Part shown: positions 1 to 42,912 of the stretch, one piece after another | Layout of the letters: every line of letters starts with the position of its first letter | How positions within the stretch are numbered: position 1 is the first letter of the stretch | Assembly: GCF_988242995.1 (NCBI RefSeq) | Contig: NZ_OZ547043.1 | Strand: one strand, 5' to 3' | Length of the DNA stretch: 64,000 nucleotides | Notes under the pieces: generated by a model | Told to the model about the DNA's origin: nothing | What the model saw: only the letters and a program-made list of their open reading frames with translations | Databases searched by the model: none | Made by a program: the position numbers and the translations under genes

Positions 1-1437
1 GACTGGTGTATCTCCCGTCAGCGCACCTGGGGCGTACCGATGTCACTGTTCGTGCATAAAGACACGGAAGAGCTGCATCCGCGTACCCTCGAACTGATGG
101 AAGAAGTGGCTAAACGCGTTGAAGTTGACGGCATCCAGGCGTGGTGGGATCTCGATGCGAAAGAGCTCCTCGGCGACGAAGCTGATCAGTATGTGAAAGT
201 GCCGGATACGCTGGATGTATGGTTTGACTCCGGATCTACCCACTCTTCCGTTGTTGACGTGCGTCCGGAATTTGCCGGTCACGCAGCGGACATGTATCTG
301 GAAGGTTCAGACCAGCACCGTGGCTGGTTCATGTCCTCTCTGATGATCTCTACCGCGATGAAGGGCAAAGCACCGTATCGTCAGGTACTGACCCACGGCT
401 TTACCGTGGATGGTCAGGGCCGCAAGATGTCTAAATCCATCGGCAACACCGTTTCGCCGCAGGATGTGATGAACAAACTGGGCGCGGATATTCTGCGTCT
501 GTGGGTGGCATCAACTGACTACACCGGTGAAATGGCCGTTTCTGACGAGATCCTGAAACGTGCTGCCGACAGCTATCGTCGTATCCGTAACACCGCGCGC
601 TTCCTGCTGGCAAACCTGAACGGTTTTGATCCGGCAAAAGATATGGTGAAACCGGAAGAGATGGTGGTACTGGATCGCTGGGCCGTAGGTTGTGCGAAAG
701 CGGCACAGGAAGACATCCTCAAGGCGTACGAAGCATACGATTTCCACGAAGTGGTACAGCGTCTGATGCGCTTCTGCTCCGTTGAGATGGGTTCCTTCTA
801 CCTCGACATCATCAAAGACCGTCAGTACACCGCCAAAGCGGACAGTGTGGCGCGTCGTAGCTGCCAGACTGCGCTGTATCACATCGCGGAAGCGCTGGTG
901 CGCTGGATGGCACCAATCCTCTCCTTCACCGCTGATGAAGTGTGGGGCTACCTGCCGGGCGAACGTGAAAAATACGTCTTCACCGGTGAGTGGTACGAAG
1001 GCCTGTTTGGTCTGGCAGACAGTGAAGCAATGAACGATGCGTTCTGGGACGAGCTGTTGAAAGTGCGTGGCGAAGTGAACAAAGTCATTGAGCAAGCGCG
1101 TGCCGACAAGAAAGTGGGCGGCTCGCTGGAAGCGGCAGTAACCTTGTATGCAGAACCGGAACTGGCGGCGAAACTGACCGCGCTGGGCGATGAATTACGA
1201 TTTGTCCTGTTGACCTCCGGCGCTACCGTTGCAGACTATAACGATGCACCTGCTGATGCTCAGCAGAGCGAAGTACTCAAAGGGCTGAAAGTCGCGTTGA
1301 GTAAAGCCGAAGGTGAGAAGTGCCCACGCTGCTGGCACTACACCCAGGATGTCGGTAAGGTGGCGGAACACGCAGAAATCTGCGGCCGCTGTGTCAGCAA
1401 CGTCGCCGGTGACGGTGAAAAACGTAAGTTTGCCTGA
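1..1437 (+). CDS. ileS: Isoleucyl-tRNA synthetase, C-terminal portion (CDS enters from upstream of window)
   Basis: Frame-1 ORF open from base 1 to stop at 1437; translation carries the KMSKS motif and C-terminal Zn-binding Cys cluster typical of IleRS; followed by lspA as in the ileS-lspA operon. Confidence 0.95.
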
Positions 1438-1931
1438 TGAGTCAATCGATCTGTTCAACAGGGCTACGCTGGCTGTGGCTGGTGGTAGTCGTGCTGATTA
1501 TCGATCTGGGCAGCAAATACCTGATCCTCCAGAACTTTGCTCTGGGGGATACGGTCCCGCTGTTCCCGTCGCTTAATCTGCATTATGCGCGTAACTATGG
1601 CGCGGCGTTTAGTTTCCTTGCCGATAGCGGCGGCTGGCAGCGTTGGTTCTTTGCCGGTATTGCGATTGGTATTAGCGTGATCCTGGCAGTGATGATGTAT
1701 CGCTCGAAGGCCACGCAGAAGCTAAACAATATCGCTTACGCGCTGATTATTGGCGGCGCACTGGGCAACCTGTTCGACCGCCTGTGGCACGGCTTCGTTG
1801 TCGATATGATCGACTTCTACGTCGGCGACTGGCACTTCGCCACCTTCAACCTTGCCGATACTGCCATCTGTGTCGGTGCGGCACTGATTGTGCTGGAAGG
1901 TTTTTTACCTTCTAAAGCGAAAAAACAATAA
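1437..1931 (+). CDS. lspA: Lipoprotein signal peptidase (signal peptidase II), 164 aa
   Basis: 164-aa hydrophobic ORF starting in the ATGA overlap with the ileS stop; matches LspA size and sequence. Confidence 0.95.
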
Positions 1932-1940
1932 TAAACCCTG

Positions 1941-1990
1941 CCGGATGCGGCCTACAGATTGCTGCGAAATCGTAGACCGCATCCGGCAAA
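1941..1990. repeat. REP-like imperfect palindrome (hairpin) between lspA and fkpB
   Basis: tgccggatgcggcctaca ... tgtagaccgcatccggca arms (about 17-18 bp) around a 14-nt loop, seen directly. Confidence 0.5.
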
Positions 1991-2018
1991 AATCCTCAAA
2001 ATATAAGAGCAAACCTGC

Positions 2019-2468
2019 ATGTCTGAATCTGTACAGAGCAATAGCGCCGTCCTGGTGCATTTCACGCTAAAACTCGACGATGGCACCACCGCCGAGTCTA
2101 CCCGCAACAACGGTAAACCGGCGCTATTCCGCCTGGGCGATGCTTCTCTTTCCGAAGGGCTGGAGCAACACCTGCTGGGGCTGAAAGTGGGCGATAAAAC
2201 CACTTTCTCGCTGGAGCCAGATGCGGCGTTTGGCGTGCCGTCACCGGATCTGATTCAGTACTTCTCCCGCCGTGAGTTTATGGATGCAGGCGAGCCAGAA
2301 ATTGGCGCAATCATGCTTTTTACCGCAATGGATGGCAGTGAGATGCCTGGCGTGATCCGCGAAATTAACGGCGACTCCATTACCGTTGATTTCAACCATC
2401 CGCTGGCCGGGCAGACCGTTCATTTTGATATTGAAGTGCTGGAAATCGATCCGGCACTGGAGGCGTAA
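2019..2468 (+). CDS. fkpB: FKBP-type peptidyl-prolyl cis-trans isomerase, 149 aa
   Basis: 149-aa ORF, FKBP domain, conserved position between lspA and ispH. Confidence 0.93.
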
Positions 2469-2469
2469 C

Positions 2470-3420
2470 ATGCAGATCCTGTTGGCCAACCCGCGTGGTT
2501 TTTGTGCCGGGGTAGACCGCGCTATCAGCATTGTTGAAAACGCGCTGGCCATTTACGGCGCACCGATATATGTCCGTCACGAAGTGGTGCATAACCGCTA
2601 CGTGGTCGATAGCCTGCGCGAGCGTGGGGCTATCTTTATTGAGCAGATTAGCGAAGTGCCGGACGGCGCGATCCTGATTTTCTCCGCACACGGTGTTTCT
2701 CAGGCGGTACGTAACGAAGCGAAAAGCCGTGATTTAACGGTATTCGACGCCACCTGCCCGCTGGTGACCAAAGTGCATATGGAAGTCGCCCGCGCCAGTC
2801 GCCGTGGCGAAGAATCTATTCTCATCGGCCACGCCGGGCACCCGGAAGTGGAAGGTACGATGGGCCAGTACAGTAACCCGGAAGGGGGAATGTATCTGGT
2901 CGAATCGCCAGACGATGTGTGGAAACTGACGGTCAAAAACGAAGAGAAGCTCTCCTTTATGACCCAAACCACTCTGTCGGTGGATGACACGTCTGATGTG
3001 ATCGACGCGCTGCGTAAACGCTTCCCGAAAATTGTCGGTCCGCGCAAAGATGACATCTGCTACGCCACGACTAACCGTCAGGAAGCGGTACGCGCCCTGG
3101 CAGAACAGGCGGAAGTTGTGCTGGTGGTCGGTTCGAAAAACTCCTCCAACTCCAACCGTCTGGCGGAGCTGGCCCAGCGGATGGGCAAACGCGCGTTTTT
3201 GATTGACGATGCGAAAGATATCCAGGAAGAGTGGGTGAAAGAGGTTAAATGCGTCGGCGTGACTGCGGGCGCATCGGCTCCGGATATTCTGGTGCAGAAT
3301 GTGGTGGCACGTTTGCAGCAGCTGGGTGGTGGTGAAGCCATTCCGCTGGAAGGCCGTGAAGAAAACATTGTTTTCGAAGTGCCGAAAGAGCTGCGTGTCG
3401 ATATTCGTGAAGTCGATTAA
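2470..3420 (+). CDS. ispH: 4-hydroxy-3-methylbut-2-enyl diphosphate reductase (IspH/LytB), 316 aa
   Basis: ORF track starts at 2386 but the recognisable N-terminus [19 protein letters not shown] begins at ATG 2470 directly after the fkpB stop; conserved Cys ligands present. Confidence 0.93.
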
Positions 3421-3444
3421 GTCATTAGCAGCCTAAGTTATGCG

Positions 3445-3476
3445 AAAATGCCGGTCTTGTTACCGGCATTTTTTAT
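3445..3476 (+). terminator. Rho-independent terminator after ispH
   Basis: aatgccggt-cttgtt-accggcatt stem-loop followed by TTTT. Confidence 0.7.
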
Positions 3477-3485
3477 GGAGAAAAC

Positions 3486-4400
3486 ATGCGTTTACCTATT
3501 TTCCTCGATACTGACCCCGGCATTGACGATGCCGTCGCCATTGCTGCCGCGATTTTTGCCCCCGAACTCGACCTGCAACTGATGACCACCGTCGCGGGTA
3601 ATGTCTCGGTTGAGAAAACCACCCGCAACGCCCTGCAACTGCTGCATTTCTGGAATGCGGAGATTCCGCTCGCTCAGGGAGCCGCTGTGCCGCTGGTACG
3701 CGCACCGCGTGATGCGGCATCTGTGCACGGCGAATCGGGAATGGCTGGCTACGACTTTGTTGAGCACAACCGAAAGCCACTCGAGATACCAGCGTTTCTG
3801 GCGATTCGTGATGCCCTGATGCGTGCACCAGAGCCTGTTACCCTGGTGGCCATTGGCCCGTTAACCAATATTGCGCTGTTACTTTCACAATGCCCGGAAT
3901 GTAAACCGTATATTCGTCGTCTGGTGATCATGGGCGGTTCTGCTGGTCGCGGCAACTGTACACCAAATGCCGAGTTTAATATCGCCGCCGATCCAGAAGC
4001 GGCTGCCTGTGTCTTCCGTAGCGGCATCGAAATCGTCATGTGCGGTCTGGATGTCACCAATCAGGCAATATTAACCCCTGACTATCTCGCTACCTTGCCG
4101 GAGTTGAATCGCACCGGAAAAATGCTCCACGCCCTGTTTAGTCACTACCGTAGCGGCAGTATGCAAAGTGGACTGCGAATGCACGATCTCTGCGCCATCG
4201 CCTGGCTGGTGCGCCCGGACCTGTTCACTCTCAAGCCGTGTTTTGTGGCAGTGGAAACGCAGGGCGAATTTACCTCTGGCACGACGGTGGTTGATATCGA
4301 CGGTTGCCTGGGCAAACCAGCCAATGTACAGGTGGCATTGGATCTGAATGTAAAAGGCTTCCAGCAGTGGGTAGCTGAGGTGCTGGCTCTGGTGCCGTAA
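3486..4400 (+). CDS. rihC: Non-specific ribonucleoside hydrolase RihC, 304 aa
   Basis: 304-aa ORF with N-terminal DTDPGIDD nucleoside hydrolase signature. Confidence 0.93.
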
Positions 4401-4551
4401 CCTGTCACATGTTATCGGCATGCAGTCATTCATCGACTCATGCCTTTCACTGATATCCCTCCCTGTTTATCATTAATTTCTAATTATCAGCGTTTTTGGC
4501 TGGCGGCGTAGCGATGCGCTGGTTACTCTGAAAACGGTCTATGCAAATTAA

Positions 4552-5388
<837 letters not shown>

Positions 5389-5440
5389 CCACAAAATGTT
5401 TATGATGATGCAAAAATAACACATTTAATTTATTGATTAT

Positions 5441-5473
5441 AAAGGGCTTTAATTTTTAGCCCTTTTATTTTTG
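5441..5473 (+). terminator. Rho-independent terminator after dapB
   Basis: aagggct-ttaattttt-agccctt hairpin followed by a T-rich run. Confidence 0.65.
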
Positions 5474-5794
5474 GTATTATGTTTTTAAATTTTATGTAAG
5501 TGCTAAAAATTACACGTTTTGTCTTCTGTTTTTGTTGTTTTAATGTAAATTTTGACCATCTGGTCCACTTTTTTCTGCTCATTTTTATTTCATGCAATCT
5601 TCTTGCTGCGCAAGCGTTTTCCAGAACATGTTATATGATCTTTTTGTCGCTTAATGCCTGTAAAACATGCATGAGCCACAAAATAATATAAAAAATCCCG
5701 CCATTAAGTTGACTTTTAGCGCCCATATCTCCAGAATGCCGCCGTTTGCCAGAAATTCGTCGGTAAGCAGATTTGCATTGATTTACGTCATCAT

Positions 5795-5815
5795 TGTGAA
5801 TTAATATGCAAATAA
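5795..5815 (+). promoter_or_regulatory. ARG-box-like operator in the carAB promoter (P2) region
   Basis: tgtgaattaatatgcaaa matches the ArgR box pattern TNTGAAT-AT-rich-ATTCA and lies about 30 bp upstream of the carA start in an AT-rich promoter region; assignment to carAB P2 is from established knowledge. Confidence 0.55.
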
Positions 5816-5843
5816 AGTGAGTGAATATTCTCTGGAGGGTGTT

Positions 5844-6992
5844 TTGATTAAGTCAGCGCTATTGGTTCTGGAAGACGGAACCCAGTTTCACGGTCGGGCC
5901 ATAGGGGCAACAGGTTCGGCGGTTGGGGAAGTCGTTTTCAATACTTCAATGACCGGTTATCAAGAAATCCTCACTGATCCTTCCTATTCTCGTCAAATCG
6001 TTACTCTTACTTATCCCCATATTGGCAATGTCGGCACTAATGACGCCGATGAAGAATCTTCTCAGGTACATGCACAAGGTCTGGTGATTCGCGACCTGCC
6101 GCTGATTGCCAGCAACTTCCGTAATACCGAAGACCTCTCTTCTTATCTGAAGCGCCATAACATCGTGGCGATTGCCGATATCGATACCCGTAAGCTGACG
6201 CGTTTACTGCGCGAGAAAGGCGCACAGAATGGCTGCATTATCGCAGGCGATAACCCGGATGCGGCGCTGGCATTAGAAAAAGCCCGCGCGTTCCCAGGTC
6301 TGAACGGCATGGATCTGGCAAAAGAAGTGACCACCGCAGAAGCCTATAGCTGGACACAAGGGAGCTGGACGTTGACCGGCGGCCTGCCAGAAGCGAAAAA
6401 AGAAGACGAGCAGCCGTTCCACGTCGTGGCTTATGATTTTGGTGCCAAGCGCAACATCCTGCGGATGCTGGTGGATAGAGGCTGTCGCCTGACCATCGTT
6501 CCGGCGCAAACTTCTGCGGAAGACGTGCTGAAAATGAATCCAGACGGCATCTTCCTCTCCAACGGTCCTGGCGACCCGGCCCCATGCGATTACGCCATTA
6601 CCGCCATCCAGAAATTCCTCGAAACCGATATTCCGGTATTCGGCATCTGCCTCGGTCATCAGCTGCTGGCGCTGGCGAGCGGTGCGAAGACTGTCAAAAT
6701 GAAATTTGGTCACCACGGCGGCAACCATCCGGTTAAAGATGTTGAGAAAAACGTGGTGATGATCACCGCCCAGAACCACGGTTTTGCGGTGGATGAAGCA
6801 ACATTACCTGCAAACCTGCGTGTCACGCATAAATCCCTGTTCGACGGTACGTTACAGGGCATTCATCGCACCGATAAACCGGCGTTCAGCTTCCAGGGGC
6901 ACCCTGAAGCCAGCCCTGGTCCACACGACGCCGCGCCGTTGTTCGACCACTTTATCGAGTTAATTGAGCAGTACCGTAAAACCGCTAAGTAA
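5844..6992 (+). CDS. carA: Carbamoyl-phosphate synthase small (glutamine amidotransferase) subunit, 382 aa
   Basis: ORF open from 5817; the known CarA N-terminus (M)[16 protein letters not shown] corresponds to a TTG start at 5844 preceded by SD ggaggg; GATase catalytic Cys present. Confidence 0.9.
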
Positions 6993-10911: not shown

Positions 10912-10999
10912 GGTCGCCGGATGCGATGCTGGCGCATCTTATATGGCCTACGGTTCCTTTCCAGCTAGGTCGGATAAGGCGTTTACGCCGCATCCGGAA
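10912..10999. repeat. REP/BIME palindromic units between caiF and caiE
   Basis: gccggatgcgatgctggcgcatcttat ... cggataaggcgtttacgccgcatccgg REP motifs. Confidence 0.7.
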
Positions 11000-14119: not shown

Positions 14120-15450
<1,331 letters not shown>

Positions 15451-42817: not shown

Positions 42818-42912
42818 TTCGTGCCGGATGCGCTTTGCTTACCCGGCCTACAAAATCACAGCGTGTAGGCCTGATAAGACGCGCCAGCGTCGCATCAGGC
42901 GTTACACACCTG
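42818..42912. repeat. REP/BIME cluster between araD and araA
   Basis: gccggatgcgctttgcttacccggcctac and gtaggcctgataagacgcgccagcgtcgcatcaggc. Confidence 0.75.

Follow-up and report, generated by a model that had tools for sequence, protein, structure and literature searches.

The spacer between lspA and fkpB in a 64,000-nucleotide stretch of DNA (contig NZ_OZ547043.1, hereafter the window) carries a hairpin that almost certainly derives from a convergent REP pair (iREP, 16-nt linker, REP; one BIME unit) collapsed by two internal deletions. Taken as a whole, the evidence is probably best explained by a collapsed REP pair acting as a REP-like, exonuclease-blocking stem-loop with read-through. 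As an allele, the element is an ordinary REP pair in degenerate form and a common strain polymorphism of a known kind; its most likely effect, judged from better-characterised REPs, would be the capping of upstream mRNA ends only.

Position and fold of the lspA–fkpB hairpin

The window reads, all on the plus strand, the 3′ part of ileS followed by lspA, fkpB, ispH, rihC and dapB. The list of open reading frames places lspA at positions 1437–1931 (+) and fkpB at 2019–2468 (+), in agreement with how RefSeq annotates identical E. coli DNA, and the spacer between them measures 87 nt. According to both the list and the sequence, the lspA stop codon (TAA, 1929–1931, +) is directly followed by a second in-frame TAA (to 1934), and 7 nt (1932–1938, +) lie between the stop and the first paired base of the hairpin.

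A repeat search and a fold both recovered the imperfect inverted repeat that an earlier reading of this DNA (the original prediction) had placed between lspA and fkpB, with different dimensions. The arms, at 1939–1955 (TGCCGGATGCGGCCTAC) and 1972–1988 (GTAGACCGCATCCGGCA), measure 17 nt rather than the 18 bp claimed and are 94% complementary (16/17); a linker of 16 nt separates them where a 14-nt loop had been described, and the RNA loop comes to 7 nt after inner pairing. The right arm had been quoted as 'tgtagacc...', whereas the sequence is 'cgtagacc...', and the eighteenth pair is therefore an A/C mismatch, the real base being c and not t. The sole mismatch within the arms, C/A at 1951/1976, is due to a strain-group-specific G-to-A change at 1976.

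The predicted RNA stem consists of 12 + 4 + 4 bp closing a 7-nt loop, the last four pairs (GAUU/AAUC) lying inside the linker AGATTGCTGCGAAATC (1956–1971, +), where an inner helix joins 1957–1960 with 1968–1971 around the loop at 1961–1967. This linker is unique within the window. In the window allele, a mismatch and a bulge interrupt the duplex. The minimum free energy was −33.3 kcal/mol, compared with −12.65 ± 2.78 kcal/mol for 200 shuffled sequences (z = −7.43), none of which (0/200) was as stable; across predictions (−32.3 to −33.6) the stability of the element is about −33 kcal/mol. With at most one mismatch allowed, the window contains 8 copies of the REP head motif GCCGGATGCGGC, where 0.86 would be expected, and the shuffle z-score together with this excess rules out a chance palindrome.

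On the plus strand the stem is followed by AAAATCC, so the absence of a U-run given in the original prediction was correct. An intrinsic terminator on this strand is ruled out, with no U-tract and no call from the terminator scan. The Shine-Dalgarno-like AAGAG (2005–2009, +) and the ATG (2019–2021, +) of fkpB, both conserved across genera, are not occluded by the hairpin because they lie 16–30 nt beyond the stem. An Rfam scan of window positions 1–6000 yielded no family at the hairpin that reached its gathering score; the only match there, a bZIP intron on the opposite strand (20.9 bits vs a gathering score of 41, E = 3.1), is at chance level.

Descent from a convergent REP pair

Pairwise and mafft alignments of E. 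coli alleles revealed three length states of the spacer. The full state (124 nt; K-12 MG1655, BL21 and the outgroup E. albertii) contains two complete, convergent REPs of 34–36 nt in the order GCCGGATGCGATGCTGACGCATCTTATCCGGCCTAC, then AGATTGCTGCGAAATC, then GTAGGCCGGATAAGGCGTTTACGCCGCATCCGGC. In the intermediate state (107 nt; MIN11, APEC O2:K1, MS7163, ECONIH2 and others) the right REP is without 18 nt, and in the short state (87 nt; the window, O157:H7 and others) the left REP is additionally without 20 nt. The left deletion falls at about 1947/1948, with a junction that is ambiguous within a CG microhomology, and K-12, BL21, E. albertii and the intermediate alleles all have the 20 nt; the right deletion removed 18 nt between GCCG direct repeats, a segment present in K-12 and E. 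albertii. In these alignments the window differs from K-12, BL21 and E. albertii by gaps only.

Each arm of the hairpin is accordingly legible as half of a REP, starting with the head GCCGGATGCGGC and ending with the tag CTAC/GTAG. The left arm (1939–1955, +) is the stub of the left inverted REP, its head (T)GCCGGATG fused to the tail CGGCCTAC, with the CTAC tag at 1952–1955; the right arm (1972–1988, +) is the stub of the right REP, with the GTAG tag at 1972–1975 followed by ACCGCATCCGGCA. Folded singly, the stubs reached only −6.5 (left) and −1.9 kcal/mol (right), compared with −21.5 and −20.9 kcal/mol for the intact K-12 units. Since these head-plus-tail stubs of 16–17 nt are poor folders alone though mutually complementary, the hairpin is an inter-REP structure. 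The label of a "truncated REP" used in the original prediction was thus apt as to kind, the element being REP-like, but the allele alignments and stub folds give the anatomy of two half-REPs and not of a single truncated one.

A REP unit is defined as an imperfect palindrome of 30–40 nt with GTAG 5′ to its foot, and such units form BIME or REPIN pairs (PMC3333891). Measured against this definition, the window element is homologous by descent to the REP/BIME/REPIN elements of E. coli (Stern/Higgins 1984; Gilson/Bachellier; Ton-Hoang 2012, PMC3333891) and retains heads (GCCGGATG), tails (GGCCTAC) and both tags, GTAG at 1972–1975 and CTAC at 1952–1955. It is extragenic and occupies a typical REP site, just 3′ of a stop codon between tandem genes, in a window that holds further family members at 10.9, 15.4, 35.8 and 42.8 kb, and it has intact orthologous REPs in K-12, BL21 and E. 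albertii. It differs in that each unit has lost 18–20 nt of its own stem-loop, so that the 16–17 nt stubs form no self-folding 30–40 nt palindrome and the hairpin is inter-REP rather than intra-REP; the two-mismatch bulge of the REP stem, relevant to TnpA(REP), disappeared when both units lost their 3′ stem halves. At the orthologous locus, the alleles of K-12, E. albertii, Citrobacter and others conform to a BIME/REPIN pair, of which the window keeps the orientation, the linker and the tags, with no intact REP. Compared with BIME-2 (z2 + y, short S linker, usually tandem), the locus has a single pair and no tandem array; the right K-12 unit resembles the y-like units at 10.9 and 15.4 kb and the left one the z2-like unit at 10.9 kb, a comparison made with units of the window and not with a published consensus.

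A close parallel within the window is the REP pair at 10915–10999, whose two unit types are those of the ancestral lspA–fkpB pair, with few differences. Other canonical REPs lie at about 15372–15450, about 35810–35924 and about 42820–42900, along with a lone REP tail at 27999–28012, and a search for other collapsed REPs in the window found none. The RefSeq annotation of K-12 carries no REP feature at the lspA–fkpB locus or anywhere else; as it labels no REPs at all, the missing label at this locus is uninformative.

Allele frequencies and variation in E. coli

To determine the frequency of the alleles, we queried 5,426 complete E. coli genomes by megablast with allele-specific sequences. The lspA–fkpB stretch was matched in 5,425 of the 5,426, one of them at 100%, which marks the window as E. 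coli DNA, and the states divided into about 40% collapsed, about 26% intermediate and about 33% full. An intact left REP, which marks the full and intermediate states, was present in about 3,200 genomes, estimated from evenly spaced rows to comprise about 1,400 intermediate and about 1,800 full alleles. The collapsed state accounted for about 2,000–2,200 genomes, roughly 1,500 with the O157-type left arm (GATAAGG) and about 485 window-like; about 153 genomes were identical to the window over 1930–1998.

Five distinct short alleles were found, which differ at five stem positions; all the changes disrupt pairing and for none is there a compensating change, which argues that the stem is not under strong purifying selection. 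Predicted stabilities were −31.9 kcal/mol for O157, −33.6 for the window, −41.7 for TUM20902 (a perfect 17-bp stem), about −41 for the intermediate form and about −58 to −59 for K-12, and the basal 8 bp (UGCCGGAU/AUCCGGCA) were invariant across the E. coli alleles examined. Whether the form is full, half-collapsed or collapsed seems to be subject to little or no selection. We consider it distinctly unlikely that the three states form a segregating "dial" that sets LspA : FkpB/IspH ratios by E. coli lineage; its range would run from about −58 kcal/mol (full) over about −41 (half-collapsed) to about −32 to −42 (collapsed). The continuous helix and identical basal stem that follow the mirror-image deletions could reflect selection for a hairpin that blocks exonucleases or stalls ribosomes while shedding the sequence recognised by the REP transposase.

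The commonest collapsed allele, that of O157:H7, has GATAAGG in place of GATGCGG in the window, and STEC299 and a few other strains carry a one-step variant, GATACG, within an intact REP. As the AA exactly complements the TT of the deleted REP 3′ arm, the O157-type left arm hints at a hairpin-templated (quasipalindrome) mutation that may have preceded the deletion. The predicted two-step, full-length intermediate (GATAAGATGC...) occurred in 0 of the 5,426 genomes.

Variation of BIMEs between strains was reportedly described by Bachellier et al. in 1997. A literature search for BIME polymorphism in ECOR strains returned nothing useful. Strain-to-strain BIME variation in general is well documented (PMC3333891).

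Distribution and polarity across Enterobacterales

An LspA-based scan of a genome collection covered 80 species. REP pairs of the local REP flavour occupied the same site, 5–9 nt after the lspA stop, in Citrobacter youngae, C. werkmanii, Pseudocitrobacter, a Pluralibacter MAG, Enterobacter asburiae, Enterobacter sp. ENT03 and others, with a linker related to that of the window (A-TT..CTGCGA..CTT) and a conserved fkpB ribosome-binding region. The distance from stop codon to element was 5–9 nt in Citrobacter and Enterobacter; it did not vary among the E. coli alleles, and in Escherichia and its close relatives the element stands 7–8 nt after the stop. A single unit was retained in Citrobacter FP75, Escherichia sp. 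ESNIH1 and Pseudescherichia vulneris. Within the Escherichia/Citrobacter/Enterobacter group the spacer measured 50–275 nt; in Superficieibacter an extra insert of about 130 nt separates the two REPs, and the spacer of Morganellaceae contains a hairpin and T-run resembling a real terminator.

Elsewhere, lspA and fkpB adjoin each other or stand 0–11 nt apart: this holds for Serratia, Yersinia, Pantoea, Erwinia, Pectobacterium, Hafnia, Cedecea neteri and for most of the other non-core Enterobacterales sampled. This proximity (loci L029–L067, compared with L009–L028) suggests translational coupling of lspA and fkpB where the genes abut. E. albertii and the sister genera carry undeleted pairs, the opposite of a short form ancestral in the outgroups, and the other genera lack the spacer; on these sequence comparisons the spacer is an old REP insertion in the Escherichia/Citrobacter/Enterobacter lineage and the window form a derived decay product, as far as the sampled genomes indicate. 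The operon can evidently do without the element, as most sampled Enterobacterales outside this group have none.

Conservation of the palindrome, which the original prediction had proposed as a check, gave a divided answer. No E. coli allele seen was without some REP-derived hairpin, and several sister genera had one as well, but it came in three length states within E. coli, showed no compensatory changes and was absent from most sampled Enterobacterales outside Escherichia, Citrobacter and Enterobacter.

RNA 3′ ends and a candidate mechanism

K-12 Term-seq data for LB at OD600 0.4 list an RNA 3′ end at 25802 (+), classed as "orphan" and with a modest mean of 1,009 reads (Adams et al., PMC7815308 supplementary file 1). 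Coordinate mapping puts it 7 nt beyond the final REP base (25795), which corresponds for the end itself to position 1994 (+) of the window, where the RNA 3′ end of the window allele is predicted. In E. coli, 3′ ends left by exonuclease trimming are marked by stable stem-loops that have no U-tract (Dar and Sorek, PMC6061677), and because the K-12 end stands a few nucleotides past a stable, U-less stem, it reads as the signature of 3′-exonuclease trimming, that is, of a REP stabiliser. Stabiliser, processing site and partial attenuator, the three functions offered in the original prediction, are standard REP roles; the first is indirectly supported by this end for the full-length K-12 pair in LB at OD 0.4, but not for the other two conditions, LB at OD 2.0 and M63, where 25802 is unlisted (PMC7815308). 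Across the four supplementary files of that study, the Rho-termination table included, lspA is the only gene named from this operon or rihC.

The genes belong to one operon, ribF-ileS-lspA-fkpB-ispH (PMC10783499). By analogy with known REPs, the stem-loop of the window may well act on this polycistronic transcript in a REP-like manner. The structure of −33 kcal/mol would halt 3′-to-5′ exonucleases, and a 3′ end would be defined or protected about 6–7 nt past the stem, near 1994, for the upstream ileS-lspA mRNA, giving a ribF-ileS-lspA species that ends at the stem-loop; RNA polymerase would mostly read through into fkpB and ispH. Since the basal stem is kept and the fold still reaches −33 kcal/mol, the collapsed allele would be expected to block exonucleases still. 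Ribosomes terminating on lspA would have to melt the base of the stem, which starts 7 nt after the stop codon, and LspA output might be modestly lower as a consequence.

At REP325, the upstream mRNA is stabilised and downstream transcription partly attenuated, and tandem gene pairs with an intervening REP have a higher upstream/downstream expression ratio (Harris et al., bioRxiv 10.64898/2026.03.23.713779). The lspA–fkpB element shares with REP325 (yjdMN operon) and the malE–malF REPs a stable, U-less intercistronic stem-loop, of which the K-12 homologue has a downstream 3′ end; unlike them, it has in the window just one short hairpin where they have several intact REPs, and it is known here from sequence. 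A further difference is the essential gene ispH downstream, given which any attenuation at lspA–fkpB must be weak. Compared with the U-less hairpins at exonuclease-trimmed 3′ ends (PMC6061677), the stable stem and the K-12 end a few nucleotides downstream are alike, whereas the window hairpin is intra-operonic, with a translated gene 30 nt on, and does not stand at the end of a transcription unit.

Alternative explanations

The chief alternative sees the hairpin as a neutral relic, left by the decay of a selfish or parasitic repeat and without measurable effect on operon expression; we regard this as possible, though improbable on balance. The comparable frequencies of the three length states in E. 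coli, the failure of every stem substitution to be compensated and the lack of the element wherever lspA and fkpB abut, as in most sampled Enterobacterales outside Escherichia, Citrobacter and Enterobacter, all speak for it, as does the finding that REPs have no general effect on mRNA half-life (Harris et al.). It is harder to reconcile with the K-12 3′ end at the homologous place and with the persistence of some stable hairpin in all alleles and in each sister genus whose spacer is expanded; moreover, an intercistronic stem of −33 kcal/mol is physically expected to stop 3′ exonucleases (PMC6061677).

The hairpin might instead serve as a translational brake on lspA, a somewhat doubtful reading that is compatible with the preferred one of an exonuclease-blocking collapsed REP pair. 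The terminating ribosome would stall, leading to mRNA cleavage, tmRNA tagging and less LspA (the Liang-Rudd-Deutscher mechanism). In the account of Liang et al. 2015 given in PMC12306157, REPs closer than 16 nt to a stop codon stall terminating ribosomes and lower translation of the upstream gene; the stop-to-stem distance of 7 nt falls inside this reported limit, and the spacing is invariant among E. coli alleles and kept at 5–9 nt in Citrobacter and Enterobacter. The distance rule in that account was, however, derived from intact REPs, and lspA is missing from the supplements of two REP surveys (Harris 2026 and RepRanger), in neither of which lspA or fkpB is entered.

Partial transcription attenuation, intrinsic or Rho-dependent, which would lower fkpB-ispH relative to ileS-lspA, is unlikely. 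It could draw on the partly Rho-dependent attenuation that is possible with BIMEs and REP325 (Harris et al.; PMC6061677), on the higher upstream/downstream ratios of pairs of tandem genes flanking a REP and on the K-12 3′ end mapped just downstream of the element. Against it, the stem is followed by AAAATCC with no U-tract and the terminator scan is silent. Translation of fkpB begins 30 nt on, which leaves little untranslated RNA for Rho loading, and the C excess in these 30 nt is weak (7 C vs 3 G). The Term-seq supplements, including the Rho-termination table, name neither fkpB nor ispH. Like ileS and lspA, the other two essential genes of the operon, ispH cannot be spared, and its position downstream limits any attenuating effect. 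Strong attenuation by the hairpin is unlikely because there is no U-tract, because fkpB is translated from 30 nt downstream with its AAGAG free and because ispH is essential.

We consider it very unlikely that the hairpin is an endonucleolytic processing site at which RNase III, acting on the roughly 20-bp duplex, or RNase E, acting on the flanks, splits the cistrons. The duplex of 17 + 4 bp, far longer in K-12 (−58 kcal/mol), nears the length of an RNase III substrate, but in the window allele it is broken by a mismatch and a bulge, an end 7 nt beyond the stem speaks for exonuclease trimming and not for cleavage inside it, and the main text of a survey of RNase III targets (Altuvia 2018) contains neither lspA nor fkpB. 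A role at the DNA level, as a site bound or cleaved by gyrase, IHF, Pol I or the transposase of REPs, TnpA(REP), is hardly credible: such roles are known for intact REPs and BIMEs (PMC3333891, PMC8266576) and the GTAG tags are kept here, but E. coli TnpA(REP) requires GTAG beside a folded, bulged REP stem (PMC8266576), both stems and their bulges have been deleted, and the linker is only 16 nt long, whereas the IHF site of BIME-1 sits in the long L linker.

What remains mildly new about the collapsed REP pair is that two mirror-image internal deletions turned it into one inter-REP hairpin, with the full, intermediate and collapsed states at about 33, 26 and 40%. A palindrome taken for a single truncated REP can be two half-REPs paired with each other, and a remnant of this kind would escape REP finders that search by motif or be mislabelled by them. 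The natural three-allele series, in an operon with ileS, lspA and ispH, might serve as a test of whether REPs tune expression within operons. Since REPs, BIMEs and their strain polymorphism are long established, current understanding is unchanged, and the element is of little importance beyond annotation.

Other features near the hairpin

On the minus strand, the same hairpin is followed by a T-rich run (GGGTTTATTATTGTTTTTT), and a promoter-like site (TTCAGA, 16 nt, TATATT) lies upstream of it at 2027 to 2000, the whole layout spanning 2027–1900. This arrangement could, from its sequence, produce or end a short antisense RNA. For K-12 in LB at OD 0.4, Term-seq lists no minus-strand 3′ end in the equivalent region.

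Several features cluster at the 3′ end of lspA. A terminator-like stem at 1873–1896 (+), followed by a GGTTTTTT run to 1906, lies within the last 60 nt of the gene, and K-12 Term-seq lists no end at this site (1873–1906). An A/T-rich inverted repeat of 12 nt (1900–1911 with 1915–1926) covers the final lspA codons. Genomic SELEX placed a peak of the RpoF (sigma-28) holoenzyme at K-12 25672, between ileS/lspA and fkpB, with an intensity of 8.1 (PMC5493296 Table 4); this position corresponds to about 1902 in the window, inside the 3′ end of lspA, and a promoter-like element (TTTACC, 17 nt, AATAAT) occurs near it at 1904–1932 (+). A start site at this element would make the hairpin the 5′ end of an fkpB-ispH transcript.

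Further upstream, K-12 Term-seq gives an ORF-internal 3′ end in lspA at about window position 1555 (K-12 25325) in two growth conditions (PMC7815308 supplementary file 1). Downstream of the operon, Rfam returned weak, sub-threshold matches to sroD (3391–3475) and DapZ (5392–5472), and a strong one to the ES003 sRNA downstream of dapB (5744–5796, +; 87.4 bits vs a gathering score of 37, E = 8e-17).
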